In this document: piece after piece, positions 3,004 to 60,696 of the stretch
Layout: every line of letters starts with the position of its first letter
Position numbering within the stretch: position 1 is the stretch's first letter
Source of the DNA: Rotaria sp.
Lineage: Eukaryota
Reading direction: 5' to 3'
Length of the DNA: 64,000 nt
Assembly (NCBI GenBank): GCA_905330235.1
Contig: CAJNUA010000046.1
Span: forward strand, 311,575-375,574
The notes under the pieces: generated by a model
What the model was told of the DNA's origin: nothing
The model's database searches: none
What the model saw: the letters and a program-made list of their open reading frames with translations, nothing else
Program-made: the position numbers and the translations under genes

Positions 3004-4197
3004 TTACCGAGTTACTAGTAAATCAAATGTAAGTACCACGTTCAGGTATAAAAAACCCAGTGAAAAACTAGTTATTTTTCTTTTACCTGTTGTAGACATC
3101 AATATAGTTGTGATTGTAGTTGTTGCTGTGATAGTGGTAGTTTGCGTTGTATTGCTACCTGTACTTGAGCTTTCGGCTGTGGTTGTTGTGGTCGAGGTCA
3201 CGTCTGCGTTTATAATAATCGTTGCCGTGGTTGTCGTGCTGGCTGTGGTGATCGCGGCTATGGCTGCGGTTGTTGTAGTCGATGTTACTTCTGTTGTTGT
3301 TGTAATTATTGTCATGGTTGTCGCGATAGTTGTTGTGGTCGAGGCCACGGCTGTGGTTGTTGTAATTGTTGTCGTGGTTGTCGCGGTGGTTGTTGTAATT
3401 GTTGTCGTGGTTGTCGCGGTGGTTGTTGTGGTCGAGGTCATGGCTGTGGTTGTTGTAGTCGAGGTTATGGCTGCGGTTGTTGTAATTGTTGTTGTTGTGG
3501 TCGAGCTCATGGCTGTGGTTGTTGTAATTGTTGTCGCGGTTGTGGCGGTGGTTGTTGTGGTCGAGGTCATGGCTGTGGTTGTTGTAGTCGAGGTTATGGC
3601 TGTGGTTGTTGTAATTGTTGTTGTTGTGGTCGAGGTCATGGCTGTGGTTGTTGTAGTCGAGGTCATGGCTGTGGTTGTTGTAATTGTTGTCGTGGTTGTG
3701 GCGGTGGTTGTTGTGGTCGAGGTCATGGCTGTGGTTGTTGTAGTCGAGGTCATGGCTGTTGTTGTTGTAATTGTTGTCGTGGTTGTGGCGGTGGTTGTTG
3801 TGGTCGAGGTCATGGCTGTGGCTGTTGTAGTCGAGGTTATGGCTGTGGTTGTTGTAATTGTTGCTGTTGTGATCGAGCTCATGGCTGTGGTTGTTGTACT
3901 TGTTGTCGTGGTTGTGGCGGTGGTTGTTGTGGTCGAGGTCATGGCTGTGGTTGTTGTAGTCGAGGTCATGGCTGTGGTTGTTGTAATTGTTGTCGTGGTT
4001 GTTGCGGTGGTTGTTGTGGTCGAGGTCATGGCTGCGGTTGTTGTAGTCGAGGTTATGGCTGAGGTTGTTGTGCTGGTCATCTTAGTCGTCGTGGTGGTTA
4101 TTGCTGCGATCTCTGTGTACGTTACGGAGGTAGTTGTTACGGTTGTGTGGGTGGTTGCGATGCCCGGAGTTGTCGTAGTCACTATTGTTGTTGTCAT
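3004..4197 (-). CDS. Thr-rich mucin-like repetitive protein (ORF may be incomplete at 5' end; no signal peptide at this Met)
   Basis: 397-aa ORF, >70% Thr, with reiterated AMTSTTTTTATTTTTITTTT-type units; encoded by the tandem repeat at 3110-4080. The plus-strand poly-Val ORF is its mirror image. Coding status is uncertain. Confidence 0.35.
   Translation of the reverse strand: MTTTIVTTTTPGIATTHTTVTTTSVTYTEIAAITTTTTKMTSTTTSAITSTTTTAAMTSTTTTTATTTTTITTTTAMTSTTTTTAMTSTTTTTATTTTTSTTTTAMSSITTATITTTTAITSTTTATAMTSTTTTTATTTTTITTTTAMTSTTTTTAMTSTTTTTATTTTTITTTTAMTSTTTTTAMTSTTTTTITTTTAITSTTTTTAMTSTTTTTATTATTITTTTAMSSTTTTTITTTAAITSTTTTTAMTSTTTTTATTTTTITTTTATTTTTITTTTAVASTTTTIATTMTIITTTTEVTSTTTTAAIAAITTASTTTTATIIINADVTSTTTTTAESSSTGSNTTQTTTITATTTITTILMSTTGKRKITSFSLGFLYLNVVLTFDLLVTR
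3110..4080. repeat. imperfect tandem minisatellite with nested ~39-nt and ~126-nt periodicities (GTT/GTG-rich on plus, ACN-rich on minus)
   Basis: Motifs such as gtcgaggtcatggctgtggttgttgtag recur more than 15 times. Confidence 0.85.
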
Positions 4198-6689
4198 TAG
4201 GATTGAGGCTTTGAAAGAGAAACAGAGGTAGAATGAATAGGGATGTCAGGTGCAAAGGGTGTTGGATGGAGGATACCTGAAGTCTGATCCGAATGCTTGC
4301 TCTGTCGGCTGAAATAAATACTTGGGACGAGAACCGCGGCCAGAATGCCAAAAGACAATGATACTAACAAGATTTTGTGAAATCTACGAGAACAAGTCTA
4401 TGTGCAAGTTGAAAGGAATAAGGAAGATACATACGGTATCATTGTGATTGTGTCAGTTAAACAGGAGCTTGCTTGGTGATTTTGGAAACTACTTCAAGAA
4501 AAGAATACGTAGTTTTAGTGCGAGCAGAGTAGATGAAGTTTTTGTGCGTATATGATCTGAAAATTTTAATTGTAGATGACTTCGATACTATTGGTAGCAA
4601 TGGCAAAGTTTGCTGTATTAATGAATACTCGTTGCTATTGTTTTGTAACACAATTGGTCGGTTAATAGTTTCTCGTTAAAAGTAGATCTTGTAGCGAAAA
4701 TTGTCGTCAAGGAATTCGCAATATTTGTTCGCGATTTGTGCGAAAGTCGATTAGCAACACGAGAAAAAATAACTGCATTAATTCTTTCCTGATCGCACAC
4801 GATCGAGACGAAGAATGAGGTGAGGCTGTGGTTGTCGGTATTTCTGCGGATGTGAGTAAAGACAATAGGCACACTTACACAGACAGTCTCTCTTTCGAAG
4901 AGTAGTCTTAGTGACGTTAGAAAAATATAATGACCTGATGCCAGGTACAAGATGAAGTGAACAGAATCCAAATTCGAACTGTACTCTGACTTTTCATTTG
5001 AAACGGATACGATGGGGCAAAGAACAGAGGACGAGGTAAGATACAATGGTAAACTGCTTCAACAGCATTGAGGAATTTCATGAATTTCAGTCGACAGAGC
5101 TTAATGAACTGTGCTTGTAGCGAAACTTTAAAACCAAAATGAGATCATAATGAAAAGATATTTATTTACGAATTGTCTTGTTTTCTGATGTTTCGAGTAA
5201 TATGACAAATTATGTGCCTTACCAATGGTCATCCGAATAAAAATCAAAGGCAAGTAGTCTATTTTTTAAAGGTTGAAAAAGTCCAGAAATCATTCTATTC
5301 AAGCTTGCAGAAAAATGTTTCGGTTATAATGCAGAGCACCACTACTTCGAAGTATTGAATGTAAATTGTGGACTTACAGATAAAATATTGGATGCATCTC
5401 TATCTCACGCGTAAAATACTCTCTGAGAATTTGGTATATAGCGTATCAACTTCCCATTTTAATGTCCAACGCAGGTCTTAAGGTCCCTCCTGATTATGAA
5501 GGAACTTTTTTCTACAACTATTTTCAAAATGGTTATACTAGTGCTTTCGAAACCGTGTCTATCAAGTAAGCTAAGGAATAGGTTATCTGTTTGATCAACT
5601 TTTTGAAAAAGTAGCTAGTGTTCATTCCAGAGACAGTCAGTGTGTGGTTTCTGAAAATTGTCAATCTTGTCCTTAATTGCATACGAAAGAGAGTGCCTTT
5701 TGCACTGAGATCATGCCCTAGTGTTAATCTAGAACATCTGATATGAATATTACATGGAAGTTCTGTATTTCTTCCAAAGAAATTTGTTATGCATGAACTA
5801 TCGATATACATTTTGTCGAACAAAGTTGGTGTATCTGTTCCTATTCTTCAAAACCGAAGGAGCGTGGAATGTAAACCAAATCAAGGATGATATTCACGCC
5901 GATGAAACCACCTATTTTTGATCCATCACAAAGAAAGATATGCTTAAAAACGTTTTTCTTATTAAGACAAAGTCGAAAAGGCATGTATTTTTTCCTCAGA
6001 TCTTATTTTGCCATTGTGATCAAAATTAGTTTTTTTCAACTTTTAATTACTCTAAAAATATATTTTTTGGAAAACTCAGTATATAAATATGACAGAACTT
6101 GAAATTCTGTGTCGTTCCATATATTTTTTGTTGTGTTTTGCATTCATGTGCTGAAAAATGATTTGAGTATTACATACGAGGCTCTTCATAGTTTTTCGAA
6201 GTGGGAGAAGCTAAATTTTTTTCGCAGACAGTGTGTAAAATTTTTCGCAGACATTGCTGAAAAGTCAAATGGGGAAGATGGAAGCGGCGAGGGCAAAAGG
6301 TTAGGAATTATTTTAAGCAGAGATGACATAAAATTTTTTCCAATGTCCAAATTGGGCAAAATTCTTTTTGCTCGGAATTTAATTTCGTACGAAATGTGGA
6401 CTTCGGCAAACTTCACTAACTGGTACAGAATTAAACTCAATGTCTCAGAAAGAGACCATTTCTCGCCGATTGCTAAGAGTTATACTTTTTAAAATTTCCG
6501 AAAAAAGTCTTTCATATGCAATGCAGAGTCGTTTCCTAATATTGTTGCCACCGAAGGCGGCTACACTTATGATGATCAGTCGTTAGTGAAACGCTTGTTA
6601 AGCTTAATTTTAAAAATCGCAGTCGACTGTGATCTTGTTTCACAGAAAGACAACTGAGCTTGCCGTAAGAGGAAGGAAGGTTTACTAAA

Positions 6690-11341: not shown

Positions 11342-11786
11342 TTTTACTCTCTCGAACTTAACTAACTTCACTTCATTCGCAAACTCATTATAAATCTTTA
11401 CAGATTTTTCCTCACCACCCTCATCAAGACAGATTCAATGTGTGTTTGAAAATTTTAAGTTGAACATATATGAAGTTCTCTCATATATTTGCTGATATTG
11501 CATATTCAGATGCTTTTGCCATATCCGATGAATTTTCTAACGTCTTGCAACACTTATAAAATATATCTGCTGTTCATGCTTATAATAAAATACTTTTTAT
11601 GTATGAAAATAAGTTCAAATGAAGGGCATTGTCTTCACGTGGACAATTGTACCGTTGAAAAAAATCGATTATCAAAGTTTATTTCTTTGAGAAGTAATGA
11701 ATCAATCAGTATGCAAGAAACTTTATACAACAGCAATGAAGAACACACTCCTTCCTCCCTTCCCACCAGAATAGGGTATGGATGCC

Positions 11787-11817
11787 GTGTGGGTGACGAA
11801 GAGACCCACGCCCACAA
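11787..11817. repeat. short head-to-head telomere-like pair (gtgtgggtg ... cccacgcccaca)
   Basis: Read directly; same G-then-C orientation as the other three loci. Confidence 0.4.
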
Positions 11818-12682
11818 AATAATTGAAAATTTCTATATGTTGTTGAGGAGAGTTATTTACAGAATTTACTGAGGTCTACCAGAATATACCACTATTAACA
11901 GGGATGTGAATGTAATCACAGACTCAGCCCAACCCGAAGTACATACACATCCTGGCAGACCATAGTACATTCTACAGATACTATTGATACAAATTATTAA
12001 GAACTGAATTGTTTTATAATTCATTTTTTTTATAATTACTTTATAATGCATTTGCGTCATCCATTGCTATTACTACTGTAGAATCCACTTCTGCATTCAA
12101 TTCAATTACCATGGTTTGTTTTACAATTCTAGGTGACTCTAATTCGACCGTCAATAAAACTGTTTTGATTCATATTCTTATAAGCATAGGCATTTGATCC
12201 GAACTGTATTGAATAAAACTTGAAGAAACTTCGAACGAAACTATAGAAAATTCATGCAAATTGCTTGAACTGTTCAAGAGCTCTTCATGATTATTTTTAT
12301 TTCGATAGACTTTTGGAACAGTCTATATTGTATCATCATACAGATTTTTCAAGAGGTATGGCGTAAATCTATTTATTGATGATTCTGTTTCATGATTAAA
12401 GAAATATTATTTTATTTCAAATAAAACTCGCGTAAATATTCTTCTTAAAAATTTTGAAAAGCACGAAAACAAAATACATTTTACATAAAAGAATTGTTAA
12501 ACGATTCTTTGCTTAACATTGACAGTAAATAATTAAAAACAATGAAGAACATGTTCTTGAAGAATCAAGCAGATTTAGTCGATATTTTATATATATGCCA
12601 GTACTTGTTTTGGTTTGTTTAACCTATAGAAAAAATTACTTTCCTTGACATTATTTTAGTGAAACCTATTTCTTACCTTCTT

Positions 12683-15922: not shown

Positions 15923-17167
15923 TCATATAGGGAGCTTTGATCTTTCTAGAGAGGCGATTTGTAATAATTGTTTTTCCACAATCTTAGAATTCCGAAAATC
16001 ACTCTCAGTAAATGTTGCACCAAACAAATCAGCATTTGTCAAATTTGCGTGATTAAATATGCATTGTTTACAATTAGCGTATCGCCAGTCACTATGACTT
16101 AAATCTGCACCCGTAAAATTTCCATTGATTACTCTACTATATTTCATTGATGCTTTATGCATATATGCATTTGAAAAGGTAGTATCAATAAACACAGCAT
16201 GATCAAATATTGAATTCATTAATTTAGTTTCAATTAATGCACATTTCGTAAAATTAGTATAAGTACCATTAACATGATTCATAGCCGTCTGATAGAAATC
16301 AACATTTAGACCAAACTTTGATCGATATAAATTAGCATAATCAAGTTTTGCAAACATAAATGAAGAGTTTTCAATAGCTGCATTTTCTAAATTTACTTCA
16401 ATCATAGTAGTAGAATCAAATAAACAATTGAGACAGAAAAATGTATGTAAATTAGCATGATTCATTATCACACCAATGAAATCAACATTTTCATATGTAG
16501 CAGAAAACAATGAAGCAGATGTTAAATTTGCATTATTGAAAAACAATTTTGGAGAATTATGTCTAAGAGTACTCATCTCATCATCAAATGTTGGAGCATT
16601 TCGAGTCCAAGAAAAATCAGCATTAATAAGTACAGCACCATTAAATCTTGCACCGCGGATATTAATTTCATGAAAATTAGCTCGTATCATAATAGTACTT
16701 TCCAATGAAAGATGAAATAATACTCTTCGTTCAGATTCATCAATTAATTTTAAATCAGTTAAATTAGCGTATTCAAGTGAAACTGGTGGTCGATAATCGT
16801 CTGATCGATAGGTGATTAATTTAGCTTCATATAATAAACGAACGAGAAAATTTCGTCGAGCAGAATCTAGACGATTTAATGCTGAAAGAGTGGCAAAACG
16901 AGCGATAAGTGAAGCAGATGAACTTTTATTAAGTTCTGTACCATATTTTTCAATTAATTTACTTAATGTCTTTTGACATTCATGAAGAATTTGATCTTTC
17001 TGTTGATCATCGGCTATATCAAGGTCTTGTTTACGATTATGATTTGCTATTGCAAAATCACGGTTACTTTCTAATACAGTATAAACACCAATAGCGATAG
17101 GAATAGAAATTGATATGAATAATTGAATCCAACCAAAACATGAATGATTATTGTTTTTCTGTTCCAT
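15923..17167 (-). CDS. pentapeptide-repeat protein with N-terminal transmembrane helix, intronless, 414 aa
   Basis: TM segment GWIQLFISISIPIAIGVYTVL, then coiled-coil-like region. More than 40 consecutive A(N/D)LxxA/F-type pentapeptide units follow (ANLTNADLFGATFTESDFRNSKI, NHANLHTFFCLNCLFDSTTM...). Confidence 0.7.
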   Translation of the reverse strand: MEQKNNNHSCFGWIQLFISISIPIAIGVYTVLESNRDFAIANHNRKQDLDIADDQQKDQILHECQKTLSKLIEKYGTELNKSSSASLIARFATLSALNRLDSARRNFLVRLLYEAKLITYRSDDYRPPVSLEYANLTDLKLIDESERRVLFHLSLESTIMIRANFHEINIRGARFNGAVLINADFSWTRNAPTFDDEMSTLRHNSPKLFFNNANLTSASLFSATYENVDFIGVIMNHANLHTFFCLNCLFDSTTMIEVNLENAAIENSSFMFAKLDYANLYRSKFGLNVDFYQTAMNHVNGTYTNFTKCALIETKLMNSIFDHAVFIDTTFSNAYMHKASMKYSRVINGNFTGADLSHSDWRYANCKQCIFNHANLTNADLFGATFTESDFRNSKIVEKQLLQIASLERSKLPI

Positions 17168-20033
17168 TTTGTGTTCTGAAAAGAAGTAATTTTGATTTGA
17201 CGATTATATTAATTGTAGGTAACTGATCAAATTTCTTCTGATAACATCATACTTTATACTTGAATCATGCTGATGATAGTATTAAACAAAGAAAACAGAC
17301 TAATATTGACTGAATTTCTCAAATGACTGAGTCATTGTAAGTCAAATGTTTTAAATCTTGACAATATATATATTAAATCTAGGCGTCAGTTTTCATACTC
17401 AACAAATATTTTGATAACATTGACAGAATAGATCGAACTCTAGGATAAGTATTACTCGGTAAAGCTAATTGAATTCGAACTGGAAGTTCTCGAATATTAT
17501 TAACGATGATAGGATTTAATTAATTCTAACATTGAACGATACTTGAAGTCAGAAGAGATGTGAAAGTAATACAAATTACTAACTATTGTTACAGAATATA
17601 TTACTATTTATAATGGATAAAATTTGTCAAGATGTTTTTATTTTATGACCTAGCTTAATTTACAAATCATATGTCTTGTAGATATTATCTGAGTTAATAT
17701 TCTAATAGAAAAGAAAAGAAGTTTTTTTTTAATTCAATATGCAAGCGAGAATATAATTTACTTGATTCAAAATCTTCTTCGCAATAATGTAATATGATCG
17801 TATCAACATTCGATAACTTTTAAAAATTGATTAAAATATGGAAGGAAGAACGATTTTATTGGGTATTTAATAATGTCCTTGCACATGTCATAAACATCAT
17901 GGTCATCATATTCGAATCCATTTAATATTGATTGAACTAGATCGATTAATTCTATGAATGAATACTATTCGAGTTTACTGAATATAATCCCACGGGAAAT
18001 TTGCCACTTTTCGATTGCTATAATTTATCAAGTACTATTTTCTTTCTTAATAGTTTGAATTTTTTTTTTAACTATTAAAATTTTTAGACTTTATGACGTT
18101 GTTTTTTTTTCAAGTCATTAAAAAGATCAGGCTAAGACTATTATGAATCCATCAGTTCATGTTCCTTATTGAATGAGCTGATTTCAATGCAGTCATGATA
18201 TTGGGGCAATAATCAATAGAACAAACAAAAAAGTACTTAAATAACAGTACGTAACAGTATCTCGGTCGAATATTCCATTGAGAATAGTCTTAGTACATAT
18301 GTACTTCAAAGAGTTCGTTCGATTACTTGTCTGGCTTTCAGAGTATTCCGCAAAAATTGTTTTGAATAAGTTAGTTGATTGACAACTTACAAGTATTTCG
18401 AAATCAAGAACTAAAAAAGTCCAAACACATCCGAAGCTACTGAAAAATCCAAAAGATTCTGTGGCATACTAGTAGCAGAGTATCGTGAAATTAGTATGTT
18501 CATTGCAAAGGTAGAACGACTAGTTATGATAAAATTCAAGTATTTCTATTATGATTCTTACATCATTTTAAATAAGAACATATCTAATTGACTCATCGAT
18601 GGTTACAAAATGCTTGTGTATACACTGTTATAATACGAGCTTTATTCAATGGACAAGTGTGTTCAAATAAAACAAATATTTATACTTATTGTTACTGGTA
18701 ATTTAGAGCATTTTTATGCCATTTTGTTAGCAATGTAAAATATTCGTGCTCGTCATTGTGTACAATGGAAGATGATAATCAAATAGACGCTATTGTGTTT
18801 GTATTTCGTACAAAACGTAAAGGTATTATTAAGAATACACATAAACTACAATACAAGTACCAATCTTCGTTTTGGTTCACAAAGAATGCTTTTTAAAATA
18901 ATCAAAGAAATAGTAAAACAACTAATTCCATAAAATAATATATCTAGATTCAGATGATTCAATCATCACAATAGGGTTGAAAACTGAATTTTGTAGCTCG
19001 ACAACGATCCGTATGATTTTCGAAAATAATAGGTGTTATTACTTTTCTTTTCATACTAGTATCTGAAAACTATGTTTAGATCTCTATGATGAACTACAAT
19101 AGATCTCTTAATTCAATATAATCAAGAACTCATTGTTTTCTATGAATTTCCTATTATAAATATTAATTAGATTTTGTGTCTTAATTGAATTTCCTCTCTT
19201 TATTTTGTTTTTGCTTCAGGCTATTGCAGTTTGCTTTTGTTTTGATAATTGATATATAGGGAGGAAGTATAGGCTTCGTTGCATCACTTAATATATTACT
19301 CATAAATAATATTCAAAGTTCAGAAAACAAAAAATACATTAGAAAAAAAAAATGACGACGTTTTTTATTACTGCAATGTACAATAAGAGTTACATTAAGT
19401 TTTTGTCTTTCCTTTATTTTTGTACTTCTGAACAAATATTACTTCAATTATGGTCGAAATATTTATTTAAATACAGAGATTAATAATATCTTGCTATATA
19501 TCATTAATTAAAAATGATAAAAAATCAAACTGCAGTAATCTGAAGCAAGAAAAACAAACTAGAGAAATTCAATTGAGACGCACTGTATAACAATAATATT
19601 TAGTTTAAAAATCGAACGTATATTATTTCAATATTAAATAGATGATACATTTTTTCTTTACATTTAGATACATATCTGGTGTTTTACAAACTATTATTAC
19701 AGAAAATAAACAGTAAGAATTCGAATGTTTAACAAATATTCGAAAGAAAAAAAATTGCATACAAAAAAATGATTAGTTTTAATAAAAATATCATACACAC
19801 AGACGTCAAAAGTTCATTCGATTCACAAAATATTTCTCTACCTAATATTTCACTCTGCTACACTACAATGTGAATATTTTTGTATAAAACCTATTCTCAT
19901 CATTAATATCAAGATCAAAAACCTTTTATATCAATGATAAATTCTAATAATTTATATAATAGGAGTTCATAGCGCATGTTCATCTCATGCCAAGTTACAA
20001 CTTTTTAAAATAATAGTTTTATTTTATTTTTTC

Positions 20034-20246
20034 TTATGCATGTGGTTTTCCACTGTGTTCAGCAGTGCAACCATGTTGATCACAACTACTATGCCCTATA
20101 TTTGATGGATTAATCGGTGGTAATGTTTGATTTGTGCTTGGATGCATACCAACTGTATTTGTTATTGAATTCATACCTGGCGGTGCCGATTCAGTAGCTA
20201 ATTTCCCATCTGAATCTTGTATATAGTGAGTAGATGAAGACGACAT
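20034..20246 (-). CDS. hypothetical small protein (70 aa), no recognisable domain
   Basis: Isolated ORF in an AT-rich desert; Ser/Pro/His-rich, ends CDQHGCTAEHSGKPHA. Weak support. Confidence 0.12.
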   Translation of the reverse strand: MSSSSTHYIQDSDGKLATESAPPGMNSITNTVGMHPSTNQTLPPINPSNIGHSSCDQHGCTAEHSGKPHA

Positions 20247-44283: not shown

Positions 44284-44837
44284 TTATGTTTGATTAATAG
44301 TAATCATTTTCACTTCATCATGATATTGCCAATAATCATTTATGTATCCTTCTTTAACATGTTTTAACAAAACGTTTCGTCGAGTATCACAATACTGATA
44401 CTTTTCGAATATTTTTCTTTTAATTTTATCGAGTACGATTTCTTTAGTTAAGTCTTGTTCTAAAAGTTCACTAAGTTCTTCACATATTCTTTCTAAGTGA
44501 GCTTGATTTTCTTCGAAAACAATCGATTGATTATTTTTTTCTAAATAATATGCAAATGGATAAGTATATATTAACGTTCGACGACAATTTAATAAAACAT
44601 TAAATGCTTTTTCAATGATTTGAATATCATTTTTCGATATTTGTTGTTCATTTCGAATTAGTTTTGGACGAATTTTTTCGAATAATTTCGATTCTAAATC
44701 AAATGAATGTTCATGATTACGAAAGCGGTCATAATAATGCATATATCGAGATAAAACAAGAGCGTATTGATTTTGCAATTCATCACTAATTTGATCTGCA
44801 TTGTAGCGATTGCATTCTGTATGTTTAGACCATTTGC
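44284..44837 (-). CDS. Ariadne-type RBR E3 ubiquitin ligase, exon 2 of 2 (end of RING2 plus Ariadne domain)
   Basis: Acceptor ttgttattaag|GCAAATGG; phase 1 matches exon 1. Encodes G-KWSKHTECNRYNADQISDELQNQYALVLSRYMHYYDRF...TLIYTYPFAYYLEKNNQSIVFEENQAHLE...* (compare ARIH1 WYNCNRYNE...RYMNH...[29 protein letters not shown]). Confidence 0.85.
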
Positions 44838-46480: not shown

Positions 46481-47169
46481 CGCAGGATATTTAAGTTCCA
46501 AAAAACAGGAAATTCTAGCATCTTTCATGAAATATGAGTGATTTCTTGACACTATATTATCTCGAGAGAGAAATATTCTGTTAAGCTAGCATTTTCAAAG
46601 CATTCTACTGACAAGTAGACTTATCTATGGGCAAAATCTCAGATCGAAATATTGTCATCGGACTTGTTGGTATATACCATGACAGAGGCAAAACTTCCCA
46701 CAAAATACCTATAACTCTAGATAGAAAACCTAAGAGAACTTATTCTTTTGGGGTTATTCATATCTCATTAGAGCCTAGTTTATGCATGAAGTTCGAATTA
46801 AAAAATGATTGATCAGTTGAAAACGATCCTCTGTGAGTGAATGAAATCTTTTGCAATTTAATTGCCCTCTACATTACTGAATATTTAGTTCTGGTTGTTT
46901 CTCATTAGTGATTATGCATTTATAAGTAACATTACAATTATGAATATTTTTCATAATTGTAACTTTATTTGTCTGTGCTCCATTACTTCATACAATTTGC
47001 TGTTCTCATTAATATTTTTAAAAAAATCTTTGTTCTGCTTTTTACTTCTGCTTATCAGATCTGAGATCATAGTCAAACTCAAACTCAGGATTGCTGAATT
47101 ATAATCTAACAGAGTATGTATCATCCTTCATGTTCTGTAGTTTTTCATTGCAAAATTCATTGTACTTAC

Positions 47170-48232
47170 CAAAGCATAGCCAACAAAATTCATAGTTACA
47201 TTTTCTACATGTCATATGGTTACAACCACCATTCTTTTCAATATTTACTTTACATTTTGGACAAGTTTTTGTGTTAGCTTTTAACCATACAATTGTATGA
47301 CTATCATCAAGTAGTTTTTTATTCCATTGTAATAATAGAATACATTTTATTGGATCATGCCATGGTTGAGCACATTGAAAACAGAATGATGTTTGACAAT
47401 AATCACATGTAATCAATTGAGCATAATTATAAGCCGATGTAAGAGATGTTGCATTAATAATATGACCGCAATTTTTTCCTGGACACCAACGAGCACGAGG
47501 ATTATTATCTACATAGGAATTTAATATGATCTTTGTATAAATATGTTTAACGAATTCATTATTATCAAGGAATTTTGTGATAGTTTCATCATCAATAAGA
47601 ATTTCACATTGAGAATCTGGACAAACAATTGTTTGAGCAAGACCTTCATTAATAATTTGATTCATCAAATAATTTTTCCAACAATTATTACAAAATGTAT
47701 GTTTACATTCAAGACTAAACATTTCTTTTTGTTCATCGGAATAACAAATAAAACATGTACCAGTTGATTCATTTACAGAGGTTTTTTCAGCAAATGGATT
47801 AACAATTTTTGCTTGTTGAAAAAATTCATCATGATCAATTTCATAGAATTTTTCTAATAATCGTTGTTTATTCCATTTGAAATAATGCAATAAAAGTTTA
47901 ATAATAGTCGGTGGTAATTGTAGAATATCTTTTACTTCATCAACATAATTCATCATTAATTCAACATATTGATTTTGAGTTAAAATAGAATAATGAAAAT
48001 TTGGATTTATTTCATCAGATGGTGTTAATGGTTCATCAATATATGGTTGAATAGTTTCATGTTGAGTATCTTCAGGAATTTGATAAAAATTTTCGTCAAA
48101 TTCATCAGCAGGAGTTGATGGTTCGCTAGTTTTATTTTCTAATTCATTTTGTTCAGCGAATTTCGGCGAAACAGGTGATAATTCTGTCATATCATAATAG
48201 CATTCATCATCATCGGTTTCGGTTTCACTCAT
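47170..48232 (-). CDS. Ariadne-type RBR E3 ubiquitin ligase, exon 1 of 2 (acidic N-terminus, UBA-like region, RING1-IBR-RING2); full protein ~538 aa
   Basis: MSETETDDDECYYD...CFICYSDEQKEMFSLECKHTFCNNCW...CPGKNCGHII...CDYCQTSFCFQCAQPWHDP...CPKCKVNIEKNGGCNHMTCRKCNYEFCWLCFG. Donor CTTTG|GTAAGTAC at 47169. The 22 aa after CFG in the raw ORF are intronic read-through. Confidence 0.85.
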
Positions 48233-51506: not shown

Positions 51507-51819
51507 TTACATGAGATTACAAATAACTGATGTTGGATTTAATTTATCGTCAGTTTTATATGGTATGTAGACTTTAATTTCTTCGAGAAAAGTAAGGTAG
51601 TCCTTCAAACTGAGTGCCAAAGTTAGTTGAGATCTAGCAACGTCTTCTTTTAATGAAGAAAACATAGCTTGTTGGCCTGCTTGGCACATATCATAAACTT
51701 TATGCAGTAAATGACCGTTCATCCCTTCGAAAGCTAGTAGAAGAATACTAAGTTCTTTATCAAGAAGAAACGATTTGACATGATCTTTAGTCCACATATC
51801 GATACAATGTGGATATTCC
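51507..51819 (-). CDS. TIR-SAM (SARM1-like) protein copy 1, exon 3 of 3: SAM domain, stop
   Basis: Acceptor ttttattgcag|G. Encodes (V)EYPHCIDMWTKDHVKSFLLDKELSILLLAFEGMNGHLLHKVYDMCQAGQQAMFSSLKEDVARSQLTLALSLKDYLTFLEEIKVY...NLM* with a SAM-like W..V..FL....L..F.GMNG..LL pattern. Phase 2 matches exon 2. Confidence 0.75.
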
Positions 51820-52369
51820 CTGCAATAAAACAAACAATGAATTATATGTTCATTTGATAAAATGTTCAAGTTTTCCTTTATTAAACAGAAGTATAAACCA
51901 ATGTATAGATAATCAAGAACGATTAAAAATACACTAGTAGAAAATTTGACACAGACATTCTAAAAATTGATCCTCGAGATTAACAACTCTTAAAACTCTA
52001 CTTCCTCTTTTGGTATCCTGGTGGTGGTAGCTCAGCCGATTAGATTACACTTTTAATAAGGGTCAGTACAATATTTCTGAGATTTATCAAGTAGAAATTT
52101 CCATCTCAATAAATGTAAATTTGAATAAGCATTGCGCTGTTGTTCAGTTGACACAAATGTTACAAACATGATGCTTTTTTTCAGATTTCTAAGAATTCAG
52201 TAAGAAATACAGACAACACCTGTTGGACATTTCCGTCACAATTTATACTATATCTCATCTCAAATCATCAAGATCTCTGTATTTTATAAAAAGAACTTTC
52301 ACAACAAGTTTTCAAGGTTTCTTTTCAGTAGTTTAATACTTCTAACTCTCATCTTTAAAACAGACTTAC

Positions 52370-53225
52370 ACAACTGGATGTAGTTCTTTATTATTTTCAA
52401 CACTCGGAATTGTTTTCGGTGTATTATCCACTAAATAACTTGGATTATGCTGAACTTGATCTTGTTCAATAAGTGTTGAATTTGAATTATTCATTCGAAA
52501 TAGGCCAATCTGTTTCTTAAGTTCTTGATAAGCTTTATCAAAACCAAGCTTTGGAAAATCAACATAAATAAGTGCTGAAGTTAATACTCCAAGCCATCCA
52601 TCAGCTTTATAGTTGGTTGTCATCACTATTGGAATAATATGACAACGACGTTTAACTGCATAACTAGCTTCCATTTCACAAAAAGGACTCTGTTTGTAAG
52701 CATCAGACATACAAACAAGTACAAATTCTGCATTTTCAATAGCTTTAGCCATAGCATCAAATGTAGCACCATGCATCAATCGAGAATCAATCCAAACACG
52801 TAATTGATCTTTCTCAAGAGAATTTAGAATTCGATGACAAAGTTCTTTATCATTATGTGAATAACTTATCATAATATCATATTGTTTTTTGATTATCGTC
52901 GATGAAGAAATTGAAGAAGATTGTTCTTGAACTGTTTTGACTGTTGTTTCTGATTCTTTTTCTAATTTCCATATCAATGCAGTAGATACTAATTGTAGAT
53001 CTTGTTGTGGTGATGAAGTCAATGTTCGAACATGATTCATAAAAATGTCGTTGCCTTTGAGTATAGCAGCAAAGTCTTTGTTGAAAGCTAATGCAAGAAG
53101 AATTTGAAGTGCAGGAAGTTTTGCTTTGAGTGGATTGAATTGATCTTCGAGAGCACATCGAAGAAAAAGAGAGTGACCTTCTTGTTTGATTAATTCTTCA
53201 CGAATTTGATCATGCTGTGTTAATA
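52370..53225 (-). CDS. TIR-SAM (SARM1-like) protein copy 1, exon 2 of 3: linker plus TIR domain
   Basis: Acceptor tatttag|TATTAACACAG, donor GTTGT|GTAAGTCT. TIR domain DIMISYSHNDKELCHRILNSLEKDQLRVWIDSRLMHGATFDAMAKAIENAEFVLVCMSDAYKQSPFCEMEASYAVKRRCHIIPIV, with a Glu in FCEME aligned to the SARM1 catalytic Glu (KDWVHKEIV). Confidence 0.8.
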
Positions 53226-53683
53226 CTAAATAGAAAAAAGAAACACCAGTTTCTCAATGTCTATCTTAAAAAAAAACCTTTCTGATGCAATTTAAAAGAA
53301 AAAAAAAAAGAAATGCTTTCACTTCAACACATATAATATGTTACTTTAACTAAAGAAGGATCATACATTTATAAAGTCTAATTAGAATATTATTGTAAAA
53401 CAACATGGTATCAGACGAGTTGCTTTGTTAACTTAGATTGAAAGTTCAATAGATAGAATGAATCTATTCAAAGAATTGTTTTCACAGCTAGAGTTTGTTT
53501 AGAACAATAAAATGATTAAGTATCACACGTTTGATGAACGTAAGTGTTCTCAAAGAGTATTTTGCTAGTTTTACTGCTTGATGATGTACTCACTACAAAT
53601 AGTTGTGTTTCATCTAACTGAGCGGAAAAAAATTGCTTTTACCTTAATGTCTTACGTATGAAGAAAAGAGCTTAAAAACTCAC

Positions 53684-54458
53684 CTTTAAGACTTCGAAGA
53701 CTATTATGTAGACGACCTTCCGTTCGAATACCTCCATCAATAACATTTTTAATAAAAGTAATAAAAACAGTAGCAATTCTACTCGAATTTTGCAGTTGTT
53801 TTATATCTTCTTCTCCCATAATAACTGCTAGAATTCGATAGGCTTGTAAATGAATTTCATCATCATTATCTGATGTTCGTATAAGTACATTCATGAGATC
53901 GACTAACTGAAGGCTTTTAAGATAAATAACAAGCTCGCTGTCCAAAGTAAAATAGAAGAGAATTTGAAGAAGTTGTTGAACAAGAGGTATACCAGCTGGA
54001 TCTATTGTTACTTGATTTGATTCATTGACAAACATTAGAATACGTTTGATAGTATCAGCAATGCGTCGACATGTATCGCGCGTTTCATCACTAGTAATTA
54101 CATCACCAAGATCCATTCGAAATAATAGGTTAGTTATATGTAGTAGAATATTTATCATAGCTGAATTCCATTTGACATATGGTGGTCGACCAGTATAATT
54201 CTCACTAAGCCAGGTATTGAACCATTTGAGATGAGTACGTCGAATTCGTTCAATTATCTCTTGACGTCGATTACCTTCATACCAAGTAATTTGGTTTGGA
54301 TAATGCGTAAGCATAGTAAGCTCTTCATTTGAAAGAGAATTGGACTGTTCTTTAGCAACTTTTTCGAACATTTGTGTATACGTAGGAGAGCAAACTTGAT
54401 CAACAGATCTAGCTAATGTCTCGTTAAACTCTGTGCAGACAAATGCCATTGTTAACAA
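53684..54458 (-). CDS. TIR-SAM (SARM1-like) protein copy 1, exon 1 of 3: ~258-aa alpha-helical (ARM/HEAT-like?) N-terminal domain; total protein ~647 aa
   Basis: MLTMAFVCTEFNETLARSVDQVCSPTYTQMFEKVAKEQ...LRSLK. Donor AAAG|GTGAGT; phase 1 completed by exon 2. Confidence 0.7.
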
Positions 54459-58283: not shown

Positions 58284-58593
58284 TCACATAAGATTGCAAA
58301 CGCTCGATGCTGGATTCAATGAATTGCTAGCTGTAAATGGTATGTAGATTTTGATTTCTTCGAGAAAAGTAAGATAGTCTTTTAAACTGAGTGTTGCACG
58401 CTGAGATCTGTTAACATCTTCTTTCAGTGATAAAAACATTCCTTGTTGGTTGGCTTGACACATGAAGTAAGCTTGATGTAGTATTTTTCCGTTCATTCCT
58501 TCCATAACAGGCAAAAGTGCATCAAGCTCTTTATCAAGAAGAAATGATTTCACATGATCTTCAGTCCACATATCAATACTATGTGGATATTTC
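58284..58593 (-). CDS. TIR-SAM (SARM1-like) protein copy 2, exon 3 of 3: SAM domain, stop
   Basis: Acceptor ttttttgtag|G. Encodes (V)KYPHSIDMWTEDHVKSFLLDKELDALLPVMEGMNGKILHQAYFMCQANQQGMFLSLKEDVNRSQRATLSLKDYLTFLEEIKIY...NLM*, ~75% identical to copy 1. Confidence 0.75.
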
Positions 58594-58791
58594 CTACAAA
58601 AAAAAACAATAATTGCTTAACTTGGCATCATTCGGTCTATAATTATGGCTTTCTCATAAATTATGCATTAGATTCATGACGATGAATGGAAGACAAAATA
58701 AATTCACTAAACGTTACTCTCTACACTAATAGTTATAAAGAAGAGTAGCTCATGTCTAGAATGACAACTCCCATCGTTAAAATAGACTTAC

Positions 58792-59647
58792 ACAACTGGA
58801 TGTGGTTCTTTATTATTTTCAACATTCGGAATTGTTTTTGGTGTATTATCCACTAAATAACTTGGATTATGCTGAACTTGATCTTGTTCAATAAGTGTTG
58901 AATTTGAATTATTCATTCGAAATAGGCTAATCTGTTTCTTAAGTTCTTGATAAGCTTTATCAAAATCAAGTTTTGGGAAATCAACATAGATAAGTGCTGA
59001 AGTTAATACTCCAAGCCATCCATCAGCTTTATAGTTGGTTGTCATCACTATTGGAATAATATGACAACGACGTTTAACTGCATAACTAGCTTCCATTTCA
59101 CAAAAAGGACTCTGTTTGTAAGCATCAGACATACAAACAAGTACAAATTCTGCATTTTCAATAGCTTTAGCCATAGCATCAAATGTAGCACCATGCATCA
59201 ATCGAGAATCAATCCAAACACGTAATTGATCTTTCTCAAGAGAATTTAGAATTCGATGACAAAGTTCTTTATCATTATGTGAATAACTTATCATAATATC
59301 ATATTGTTTTTTGATTATCGTCGATGAAGAAATTGAAGAAGATTGTTCTTGAACTGTTTTGACTGTTGTTTCTGATTCTTTTTCTAATTTCCATATCAAT
59401 GCAGTAGATACTAATTGTAGATCTTGTTGTGGTGATGAAGTCAATGTTCGAACATGATTCATAAAAATGTCGTTGCCTTTGAGTATAGCAGCAAAGTCTT
59501 TGTTGAAAGCTAATGCAAGAAGAATTTGAAGTGCAGGAAGTTTTGCTTTGAGTGGATTGAATTGATCTTCGAGAGCACATCGAAGAAAAAGATAGTGACC
59601 TTCGTGTTTGATTAATTCTTCACGAATTTGATCATGCTGTGTTAATA
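58792..59647 (-). CDS. TIR-SAM (SARM1-like) protein copy 2, exon 2 of 3: linker plus TIR domain
   Basis: Same splice sites as copy 1; 856 nt, ~97-99% identical to 52370-53225 (only a few aa differences, e.g. GFDKAY vs DFDKAY). Confidence 0.8.
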
Positions 59648-59921
59648 CTAAATGAAAAAAAAATTATAAGTTTGTAAATGAGTGCGTTAGAAAGTATTTG
59701 GAGAGAAATTTATAATATGTCTAATTTTCAAAGTATATGCTGTTATAGCTATAGAATCAATATAAGGATTTTCTTTGGATCTTGTATTTACTAGGTGTTT
59801 CCTAATATATCGGTTGAATGAAAATTCGTTATTAAGATGATATATTCATCTAAGAGAATAGAAGAATTTTTTTGTTTTTTTTAATCATCATCATCCGTCG
59901 AAGAAGACAACTAAAACTAAC

Positions 59922-60696
59922 CTTTGAGACTTCGAAGACTATTGTGTAAGCGAGCTTCATAGGGAACGCCACCATCAATAGCATCCTTAATAAAAGTAAT
60001 AAAAACAATAGTAATTCTACTTGAATTCTGCAGTTGTTTTATATCTGCTTCTGCCATAATAACTGCTAGAACTCGATAGGCTTGCAAATGAATTTCATCA
60101 TCATTATTTGATGTTTGTATAAGTGCATTCATGAGATCGACTAACTGAAGATTTTTAAGATAAATAGCAAGTTTACTATCCAAAGTAAAATAGAAAAGAA
60201 TTAAAAGAAGCTCTCGAACAACAGGTATAGCAGTTGTATCGATGGTTATCGGATTCGATTTGCTGATGTTCAGCAAAATACATTTGATAGTATTTGTGAT
60301 TTGTCGAAAAGCACGACGCGTTTCATTGCTAGTAATAACATCATCGAGATCCACTCGAAAGAATAAGTTAGTCGCATGTAGCATGAGATCATTCATAACT
60401 AAACTCCATTTGAAATACGGTGGCAAGCCAGTATATTGTTTACTTAACCAACTATTGAACCATTTGAGATGAGTACGTCGAATTCGTTCAATTATTTCTT
60501 GACGTTTATCTCCTTGGTACCAAGTGATCTCGTTTGGATAATACACGAGTACAGTACGCTGTTCGTTTGAAAGATTATGAGGCTGTTCTTTAGCCACTTT
60601 TTGAAACAATTGTGCATATAAAGGAGAACAAACTTGATCAACAGCTCGAGCGATTTCCACTGTGGATGCTGTAGAGTTCTCAGTCATTGTTAACAA
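59922..60696 (-). CDS. TIR-SAM (SARM1-like) protein copy 2, exon 1 of 3: divergent N-terminal helical domain
   Basis: MLTMTENSTASTVEIARAVDQVCSPLYAQLFQKVAKEQ...LRSLK. Donor CAAAG|GTTAGT. Same 775-nt length as copy 1 exon 1, ~70% aa identity. Confidence 0.7.

Follow-up and report, generated by a model that had tools for sequence, protein, structure and literature searches.

A probable bacterial-origin gene for a predicted membrane-anchored pentapeptide-repeat protein in the bdelloid rotifer Rotaria

We have analyzed a stretch of 64,000 nucleotides of the genome of Rotaria sp. (contig CAJNUA010000046.1, positions 311,575 to 375,574), henceforth called the window. Its longest open reading frame (ORF) runs from ATG to TGA on the reverse strand over 414 codons, and encodes a pentapeptide-repeat protein (PRP) with a predicted membrane anchor. 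At the composition of the window (A+T 69%) a stop is expected every ~13 codons, and the chance of an open frame of this length is ~2e-15. Over its full length the product has 100% identity to a 414-amino acid (aa) NCBI protein model of the bdelloid rotifer Rotaria sp. Silwood2 (P0001; P and L numbers are our handles for proteins and loci), which carries the label 'unnamed protein product' and is present on six contigs of up to 777 kb. An earlier note made from the sequence alone had called the gene intronless. The single-exon frame accounts for the whole of the NCBI model, and the ORF is likewise uninterrupted in the orthologues of five other lineages.

The repeat region is recognized by the Pfam Pentapeptide family (PF00805) with E=9e-31 and 105.5 bits against a cutoff of 20.2, in five stretches; Pentapeptide_4 and Pentapeptide_3 also match. 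The register of the repeats read from the sequence extends over aa 131-396, i.e. ~266 aa and ~53 pentapeptides, close to the ~250 aa originally estimated. It is broken by a 20-aa loop (aa 187-206) and by a one-residue bulge near aa 286-290. Of 50 repeats, 38 have F, L, M or I at position i and 40 have A, V, S, T or C at position i-2, the hydrophobic and small residues that point inward in this fold, where four repeats make one coil. The protein thus lies above the Pfam gathering threshold and contains at least eight contiguous repeats, as is expected of the Pentapeptide superfamily. The sole hydrophobic helix (aa 11-32) follows a 10-residue tail and agrees with the single N-terminal transmembrane (TM) helix that had been proposed; the most hydrophobic 19-mer within it is IQLFISISIPIAIGVYTVL, with a mean Kyte-Doolittle value of 2.03. 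The stalk begins with units of ~11 residues (N-R-x-x-D-L-x-I-A-x-x), and continues with the helices ARFATLSALNRLD...RLLYEAKLI. Close to the C-terminus there is a motif QL..A.SL..S.L that is conserved throughout the family and in the bacterial relatives described below.

The fold was modeled using AlphaFold2 (AF2) from an alignment of 36 sequences. The model, which is a prediction and not a solved structure, has a mean predicted local distance difference test (pLDDT) score of 89 and a predicted template modeling (pTM) score of 0.81. The TM segment and the stalk form one long helix (aa 10-78), with further helices at aa 83-99 and 102-114 and a capping helix at aa 398-403. Between these lies a beta-helix (approximately aa 131-396) with pLDDT 95-99, except in the loop at aa 197-202. 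Comparison with the PDB using Foldseek gave top matches that are all PRPs, comprising HetL, MfpA, Qnr, AlbG, NP275/276, Rfr32 and designed solenoids, with a probability of 1.0 for HetL, MfpA, NP275/276 and others. A sequence search of the PDB using phmmer returned the same set of proteins plus the plastid-lumen protein TL15. A quadrilateral beta-helix is confidently predicted for the pentapeptide region, and the structure prediction that the earlier note had suggested as a check is fully in line with it. The calculated net charge of the beta-helix is -5 with a pI of 6.1, i.e. nearly neutral. Two CxxC pairs (C245/C248 and C366/C369) were considered as a metal site and rejected, because both face the core and they are six coils apart. 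Each comprises a position i and the next position i-2, so that a structural role in packing is more likely, although this is an inference only. The features of the locus are collected in Table 1.

Table 1. Features of the pentapeptide-repeat gene and of its neighbors. Positions are those of the window unless a locus is given.
Feature	Position	Strand	Basis or remark
Complete single-exon coding sequence (CDS), 414 aa and stop codon	15923..17167	-	ORF list, NCBI protein identity, Pfam, AF2 model
Putative core promoter	17176..17208	-	TATAAT at 17208..17203 and initiator (Inr)-like TCAG, A at 17177; function inferred
TM helix, aa 11-32, FGWIQLFISISIPIAIGVYTVL	17072..17137	-	Hydropathy, AF2 helix, BLASTP alignment with bacterial TM helix
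Helical stalk and N-cap, aa 33-130	16778..17071	-	AF2 helices; BLASTP to P0024 and P0039; rotifer-only profile
Pentapeptide right-handed quadrilateral beta-helix, aa 131-396, ~53 repeats, ~13 coils	15980..16777	-	Pfam, register, AF2, Foldseek
Irregular 20-aa loop, aa 187-206, WTRNAPTFDDEMSTLRHNSP	16550..16609	-	aa 197-202 with pLDDT <50; variable and gapped in family alignment
C-terminal cap, aa 397-414 (helix 398-403 and last strand), and stop codon	15923..15979	-	AF2 secondary structure
orf70, conserved 70-aa bdelloid-specific gene, neighbor outside the CDS	20034..20246	-	Upstream, same strand, ~2.9 kb
orf70 at other loci	L003:2756-2968, L007:7627-7839, L009:3610-3822, L011:2785-2997, L079:10001-10219		
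ARIH1-type (Ariadne) RBR E3 ligase, at least 2 exons	47099-48232 and 44284-44778		

A search using the full-length protein retrieves a tight family from Rotaria and from metagenome contigs with 45-82% identity. Below these there is an abrupt fall in score, from 223 bits to 70, the level at which generic pentapeptide proteins of bacteria begin to appear. The metagenome contigs that carry the close relatives have 29-31% GC and fragmented animal genes as neighbors (matrix metalloproteinase (MMP), MSP, AIM24 and IBR), and are therefore rotifer DNA.

Two bacterial proteins (P0024 and P0039) align across nearly the full length of the rotifer protein. Using the non-repeat part alone (aa 1-143), BLASTP gave E=7e-13 for P0024 and 6e-8 for P0039. 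The aligned rotifer and bacterial motifs are FGWIQLFISI and LWDWLQLLIIS, DDQQKDQILHECQKTLSKLI and IQQQDTILSDYFSDMSSLLL, and ARFATLSALNRLD...RLLYEAKLI and ARARTLLALRRLD...QFLYEAGLI. The TM helix is itself homologous by BLASTP to the bacterial helix TLWDWLQLLIVP...; at its start the bacterial proteins have K-T-L-W-D-W-L-Q-L-L where the rotifer consensus is S-C-F-E-W-I-Q-L-F, so that a W..QL core is common and the remainder has diverged. The identity of this N-terminal module to bacterial proteins, many of them metagenomic, is 25-36%, with pairwise E values down to 1e-14. A profile of the module matched 1091 proteins in a word-indexed database. A profile made exclusively from rotifer sequences matched 2248 cluster representatives at E<=1e-3 and 198 at E<=1e-10 among 1.84 billion proteins; the bacterial members that it retrieves score 60-70 bits, with E ~1e-12 when computed for the whole library. 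In GTDB the module was found at 64 loci, mostly of Ktedonobacteria (Ktedonobacter racemifer, Dictyobacter, Thermogemmatispora and Tengunoibacter), and also of other Chloroflexia, of Actinomycetota (Gaiellaceae, Rubrobacter and Solirubrobacterales) and of cyanobacteria (Nostoc and Chroococcus).

The bacterial module is always followed by pentapeptide repeats, an order seen in P0024, P0039, P0104, P0111 and the GTDB ORFs. The TM helix is therefore part of an inherited bacterial architecture, and not the separate 'eukaryote-atypical' oddity for which it had been taken. On this comparison of sequences TM helix, stalk and repeats would have been inherited from bacteria together, as one whole. The bacterial TM-stalk-PRP family resembles the rotifer protein in possessing a TM helix (...KTLWDWLQLLIVP...), a stalk (QAYLDQMS.LLL ... 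ARARTLTVL.RLD..RK..V.QFLYE..LI), a beta-helix and a C-terminal tail (QL...A.SL.G..LP.G). It differs in that a second, upstream TM helix is found in 40 of 76 bacterial proteins and in none of 51 rotifer proteins. The rotifer repeats are more degenerate; they contain much F, M, C and N and little of the A(D/N)LSG consensus. The rotifer genes have AT-rich codons, a putative eukaryotic promoter and, in some paralogues, fusions to a PLAT domain.

We note that scattered integrases and transposases occur in the flanks of the GTDB loci (L013-L076; Phage_integrase in 3 and rve_3 in 2 of 77 ORFs), and that a TM-stalk-pentapeptide gene of bacterial type is present on three IMG/VR contigs classed as viral (L082, L083 and L084). 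No copy of rotifer type was found on the viral contigs searched. Together these flanks and viral contigs hint at mobility of the gene among bacteria.

The nearest relatives outside the rotifers are all bacterial, with named matches outside Rotaria and Adineta to Anabaena, Rivularia, Ktedonobacteria and others, and no named non-bdelloid eukaryote appeared among the protein-search matches. This bears directly on whether the gene might instead be a vertically inherited metazoan pentapeptide protein, related to the luminal domain of SV2 or to KCTD9. Eukaryotes hold ~14% of the pentapeptide sequences in Pfam (PMC8145042), and the SV2 luminal domain family LD_SV2 (PF23894) matches the rotifer protein weakly (E=1.7e-4) and 13 of 30 paralogues at E<1e-4. 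However, the LD_SV2 score is 22.3 bits against a cutoff of 29, compared with 105.5 bits for the generic Pentapeptide family. Pfam gave no major facilitator superfamily (MFS) transporter domain in the rotifer protein, which has one TM helix only, and no BTB match at E<=0.1, as would be required for KCTD9. Every PDB sequence match at E<=0.01 is to a bacterial, cyanobacterial, plastid-lumen or synthetic protein, with none to an SV2 chain, and the N-terminal module is homologous only to bacterial proteins. The kinship to SV2 or KCTD9 that the earlier note had named as evidence against transfer was therefore looked for and not found; vertical descent is largely refuted and we regard it as highly improbable. 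The bacterial origin proposed from the sequence stands on these same observations, and the BLASTP comparison suggested at that time supports it.

The SV2 luminal domain (SV2A, B and C) is nevertheless instructive, as a pentapeptide beta-helix on an animal membrane protein with a protein-binding surface, serving as the receptor for botulinum neurotoxin A (BoNT/A). If the topology discussed below holds, both domains are exoplasmic. In contrast to the rotifer domain, that of SV2 has ~4.5 coils and lies inside an MFS transporter with 12 TM helices, and the sequence likeness is that of generic repeats. A bacterial membrane-tethered PRP with a comparable layout is HglK of Anabaena, with N-terminal TM segments and a long C-terminal pentapeptide region (36 repeats) that is needed for function (PMC8145042). 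HglK is unlike the rotifer protein in its length (727 aa), its four TM segments and its large intervening region. It was not among the relatives retrieved with the N-terminal module; homology of its non-repeat regions was not tested directly.

The best structural matches (HetL, MfpA, Qnr and AlbG) have the right-handed quadrilateral (Rfr) beta-helix in common with the rotifer protein. They are, however, soluble proteins of ~180-240 aa lacking a TM helix or stalk, compared with a TM-anchored protein of 414 aa. Searches of NCBIfam with the rotifer protein gave only sub-threshold generic repeat matches, with 72.7 bits against a cutoff of 260 for HetL (NF047416), 27 against 240 for Qnr, 32 against 360 for MfpA, 50 against 354 for PipB2 and 18 against 250 for HalA (Hailong). 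Neither the rotifer protein nor any of three bacterial relatives matched a defense system in PADLOC. By these sequence criteria the protein is a member of none of the Qnr/MfpA, HetL, SV2 and KCTD9 groups. We have considered whether it might be a DNA mimic of the Qnr, MfpA and AlbG type that protects topoisomerases. The fold is common to both, MfpA, Qnr and AlbG are among the structural matches, and bdelloids are extremely tolerant of DNA damage (PMC10665377, PMC10809525). But the Qnr and MfpA models together gave 27-32 bits against cutoffs of 240-490, the TM anchor is conserved, the beta-helix of ~266 aa exceeds the ~180-220 aa of Qnr and MfpA, and the charge given above is not strongly acidic. 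Such a role is very unlikely.

The gene lies in a typically eukaryotic setting. It is surrounded on the same scaffold by intron-bearing eukaryotic genes, which is the physical linkage used as a sign of horizontal gene transfer (HGT) in bdelloids by Eyres 2015 and Nowell 2018. The gene, with 30% GC, does not stand out in composition from the window, where the GC content is 25-35%. The GC content at third codon positions (GC3) is 0.154 in the gene, 0.07-0.33 in the neighbors and 0.49 (median) in the bacterial homologues. The relative synonymous codon usage (RSCU) of the gene correlates with that of its neighbors with r=0.92, compared with a median r of 0.04 for the bacterial homologues. The codon usage of the gene is fully host-like, i.e. 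it has been ameliorated; this answers the question of codon usage and GC3 relative to the neighbors that the earlier note had raised. Two of its arguments for transfer lose force here. The flanks are AT-rich as described, which is uninformative where the whole window is so, and the CDS has no intron, which carries little weight in a genome of 30% GC.

The same data dispose of bacterial contamination or a chimeric assembly. That possibility arises because the closest non-rotifer relatives are bacterial, and metagenomic copies are labeled 'YjbI with pentapeptide repeats' by JGI. It is contradicted by the uniform composition and intron-bearing genes of the window, by the occurrence of the protein on multiple long contigs and by the host-like codon usage. 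It is refuted by orthologues in conserved synteny elsewhere: Silwood1, R. sordida and R. socialis, each assembled independently, have one, and another lies on a 16-Mb chromosome of Adineta vaga.

Upstream of the ATG there is a TATATAAT box (17208..17203) with TTTTCA(G/A) 31 nt downstream, implying a 5' untranslated region of ~10 nt. Both elements are found at equal spacing before the ATG in the window, L009, L011, L003 and L077. Silwood1, R. sordida and a pair of metagenomic orthologues thus share them with the window, and further upstream blocks are conserved as well. The spacing is that of a canonical TATA box and initiator, and the gene has probably acquired a eukaryotic promoter. Whether the sequence ttttcag before the ATG is a splice or trans-splice acceptor at the 5' end was also considered. 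Orthologues have ttttcaa, so that the AG of an acceptor is not kept, and the distance of 31 nt from the conserved TATA box upstream suits an initiator better. The Logan contigs L077 and L078 were considered as possible transcripts, but these contain promoter DNA and are therefore genomic, and give no evidence of expression. With host codon usage, a conserved TATA-initiator arrangement and a place among intron-bearing genes, the domestication suggested from the sequence is supported.

Each of Silwood2 and Silwood1 has two paralogues with ~49% identity, which we call clade A (including the window gene) and clade B. As both species carry both paralogues, the duplication predates their separation. 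At every orthologous or paralogous locus examined for which there is upstream sequence, including clade B and A. vaga, a small gene lies upstream on the same strand. This gene, orf70, has the sequence pattern MSSS..DGKLATE.AP.GMNSITNTVGMHPST...SCD..GCT.EHSGK.H., has no Pfam match, and was found only in bdelloids (Rotaria spp., A. vaga, A. steineri and A. ricciae). Its ratio of non-synonymous to synonymous substitution rates (dN/dS) is 0.11-0.36 among three Rotaria species, so it is better conserved than the pentapeptide gene. The distance between the two genes varies from 0.3 to 3 kb among loci. The spacer (window 17168-20033) has a length of 2.2-3.0 kb in the two Silwood species and R. sordida, compared with 0.3-0.5 kb at the locus L003 (a metagenomic orthologue) and in A. 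vaga, which suggests an insertion in the Silwood/sordida lineage.

On the A. vaga chromosome (CP075495.1, GCA_021613535.1, at ~14.96-14.98 Mb) an MMP gene is followed by orf70 and then by an intact orthologous ORF of 421 codons (L079:10710-11975), the product of which has matching TM helix, stalk, repeats and C-terminal tail. The order MMP - orf70 - PRP is identical in A. vaga and at the Rotaria clade B locus L007, and UQ_con/F-box genes also neighbor the A. vaga orthologue. The conserved order places the gene there before the Adinetidae and Philodinidae split, so the acquisition is old and bdelloid-wide, not isolated or recent. We note that the annotation of A. vaga covers only a 187-aa product (11412-11975) of this ORF, and that the orthologue is thereby missed by protein searches; this appears to be an annotation truncation.

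An exhaustive search found many divergent proteins with rotifer-like composition and the common TM-stalk-repeat architecture. They include members with extra 11-residue stalk units (read in the sequences of P0270 and P0275), N-terminal extensions or C-terminal PLAT domains. PLAT fusions are present in 2 of 30 divergent paralogues, P0283 (A. vaga UJR34623.1, 874 aa) and P0273 (549 aa). In these the PLAT/LH2 domain lies C-terminal to the pentapeptide helix, with a best Pfam PLAT match of E=2.2e-53, and the fusion would join an architecture of bacterial origin to a typically eukaryotic domain. A. vaga UJR18939.1 (724 aa) is another divergent family member.

In a neighbor-joining tree of the module, midpoint-rooted and without support values, 71 sequences of rotifer type (19 named family members and 52 cluster representatives at 50% identity) form one clade, and 139 of bacterial type lie across the root. 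The two types were told apart by the tree and by the WDW motif; amino acid composition was tried as a classifier and rejected because it did not separate them cleanly. All the named members of the rotifer clade are bdelloids, and the outgroups are solely bacterial. The tree fits one acquisition followed by expansion. The phylogenetic check proposed in the earlier note is so far compatible with transfer, and singles out no donor lineage.

Massive HGT into bdelloids is well documented, much of it ancient and common to Adineta and Rotaria (PMC4632278, PMC5916493, PMC11258130). The pentapeptide gene resembles other horizontally acquired bdelloid genes in being of bacterial type, intronless, ameliorated, linked to metazoan genes and common to the two genera, and it matches the 'ancient HGT' class of Eyres et al. 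2015. It differs in that most of the well-studied examples are enzymes (of biosynthesis, DNA ligation or carbohydrate metabolism), compared with a non-enzymatic scaffold in a large family. Horizontally acquired genes of bdelloid rotifers were reportedly also the subject of Gladyshev et al. 2008 and Flot et al. 2013. Three A. vaga entries in GenBank are already named as pentapeptide repeat (family or -like) proteins (ACD54822.1, AEN94407.1 and AEN94425.1), which may or may not belong to the present family. An A. vaga gene, FUN_011774, is listed under nucleotide excision repair as ERCC3 (XPB) in Supplementary file 12 of PMC10809525; it carries only PF00805, and its best match in that supplement is a pentapeptide protein of Ktedonobacter racemifer. 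It is possibly mis-assigned in the DNA-repair table, and possibly a member of the rotifer family. Our literature search found no paper on this family, the N-terminal module, the linkage to orf70 or the PLAT fusions, and the word 'pentapeptide' was not found in the supplements of PMC11258130 and PMC4632278.

Selection on the clade A gene was examined by pairwise Nei-Gojobori ratios, in which dS is probably underestimated for distant pairs at a GC3 of 15%. Comparison of Silwood2 with Silwood1 and R. sordida gave dN/dS of 0.51-0.56, and that of Silwood1 with R. sordida gave 0.99. In the R. socialis orthologue (L080:5001-6045, CAJNYU010003394.1) an in-frame stop stands at the position of R104, which is invariant elsewhere, the reading frame shifts near aa 255, and the sequence is truncated after aa 346; the deposited gene model, of 241 aa, avoids the stop by splicing. 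A protein fragment from R. magnacalcarata (P0090) also looks damaged at the protein level.

Ratios approaching unity and the damaged copies are what would be expected of a decaying relic, i.e. a once-useful foreign gene drifting toward a pseudogene in Rotaria, open by luck and without function. Against this, the ORF is intact in eight lineages (the window, Silwood1, R. sordida, L003, L077, L078, L007 and A. vaga). In neutral simulations, which were confined to substitutions and ignored indels, it stayed open in 0.12% of runs at the divergence of Silwood1 (the smallest) and in 0 of 5000 runs at the three largest divergences. The open ORF is not explained by neutral evolution. Moreover, the mean column identity follows the register of the repeats, being 0.80 at position i, 0.67 at i-2, 0.60 at i-1 and 0.51-0.52 at i+1 and i+2 (register-corrected). 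Constraint is weak and acts mainly on the inward-facing core residues, so that the fold is kept and the surface changes fast. The neutral simulations, the eight intact lineages and the register-linked conservation all disfavor pure decay, as do the conserved TATA-initiator and upstream motifs, and we consider a functionless relic improbable.

The best explanation of these observations as a whole is an ancient bacterial acquisition that was domesticated and expanded into a family of membrane-tethered binding platforms, and we regard it as reasonably probable. Its elements differ in strength; the part concerning origin and structure is very probably correct, and the binding-platform mechanism is tentative and falls short of being probable. 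An early bdelloid would have taken up the whole TM, stalk and repeat architecture once, from a bacterium carrying the family now common in Ktedonobacteria, other Chloroflexota, Actinomycetota and cyanobacteria. Domestication would have brought host codon usage, the TATA-initiator promoter and linkage to rotifer genes. Expansion to a multigene family may then have followed, with PLAT domains or N-terminal extensions added to some members; the window copy would be the clade A member in Rotaria sp. Silwood2. Transfer from bacteria and a novel eukaryotic use of the beta-helix fold had been put forward as alternatives; these are not exclusive, and both apply.

The protein contains no catalytic motif or domain, and would be a non-enzymatic single-pass protein with a short N-terminal tail, TM helix, helical stalk and rigid beta-helix of ~13 coils. 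The Rfr fold rises 4.8 Å per coil, from which the length of the rod should be ~60 Å. The TM helix would tether the protein to the membrane. The stalk of ~11-residue repeats, the length of which is variable, may set the distance from it and might allow oligomerization. The flat faces of the beta-helix, with their fast-evolving outward residues, could bind or scaffold other macromolecules. Among 51 rotifer members, 32 have a more positive charge on the N-terminal side of the TM helix than on the C-terminal side and 8 a less positive one, and several paralogues carry an N-flank charge of +4 to +6. By the positive-inside rule this bias is a weak indication that the N-terminus is cytosolic and the beta-helix exoplasmic (type II topology), like the luminal domain of SV2.

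A number of points weigh against this interpretation. The flank charges of the window protein itself are balanced (+1/+1), and the second TM helix in around half of the bacterial relatives would flip the side of the membrane on which the repeat domain lies. The bacterial family offers neither a known function nor a conserved neighborhood (there is no conserved partner among the 77 ORFs flanking the GTDB loci) to which the proposed mechanism could be anchored. The single acquisition rests on monophyly in a crude midpoint-rooted neighbor-joining tree that singles out no bacterial sister group or donor lineage, and restriction to bdelloids is not proven, as the rotifer-type sequences come mostly from metagenome contigs. 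Lastly, the clade A copy is at best weakly constrained (dN/dS 0.51-0.99) and dispensable in some lineages, and that of R. socialis is a pseudogene.

A more specific version of the binding platform would be a fast-evolving surface recognition molecule, i.e. an immune receptor or one for other biotic interactions, exposed on the exterior of the cell. Rapid evolution of the surface round a conserved core, the large and diversified family and its lineage-specific loss would suit such a role, although this is speculation. The charge bias favors an exoplasmic beta-helix, for which SV2 provides a precedent as a protein-binding domain (PMC8145042), and the window is rich in TIR, LRR and TPR genes. On the other side, the evidence for selection consists of pairwise ratios and includes none for positive selection at specific sites, the exoplasmic topology is a weak prediction, and 'pentapeptide' is absent from the supplementary tables of a fungal-infection study. 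We consider a recognition role unlikely.

Other features of the window may be noted briefly. In addition to the ligase of Table 1, the neighbors comprise a eukaryotic-type carbonic anhydrase, an LRR_6 protein, two TIR genes and a TPR_12 protein. There is a tandem segmental duplication at 51628-54458 and 58402-60696 with a period of ~6.2-6.8 kb. The two copies of a TIR-domain gene within it (52366-53040 and 58788-59462) are 96% identical in DNA sequence, and those of a gene of unknown family next to it (53652-54458 and 59917-60696) have 87% identity. A GC-rich island at 3004-4231 (GC 0.47, GC skew 0.52 and a strong AT skew) contains a repetitive 397-aa ORF rich in Thr, Ala and Ser on the reverse strand, overlapped by a Val-rich ORF on the forward strand. 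The 397-aa ORF is either mucin-like or a low-complexity tandem repeat.

The finding does not overturn current understanding, since bdelloids have for years been known to contain transferred genes, some of them annotated as pentapeptide-repeat proteins. It is a clean and well-delimited addition to the catalog of bdelloid foreign genes, in which a whole bacterial domain architecture would have been taken over intact. The gene has apparently gained a eukaryotic promoter and host codons, persisted through the divergence of Adineta and Rotaria, multiplied, and recombined with PLAT. As it does not encode an enzyme, it bears on the domestication of structural and scaffolding genes, beyond metabolic ones. 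Two by-products are the definition of an N-terminal module, widespread in bacteria, for which there is neither a Pfam family nor a known function, and the exposure of an error in the annotation of the A. vaga chromosome assembly. There is a slim chance that from one bacterial gene for a membrane-anchored PRP bdelloids have made a large set of fast-evolving beta-helix receptors on the cell surface, some of them fused to PLAT domains, the clade of the window gene being kept beside orf70 as a partner. If that were true, the family would be an animal recognition or defense repertoire built on a fold of bacterial origin, a use known in no other animal.

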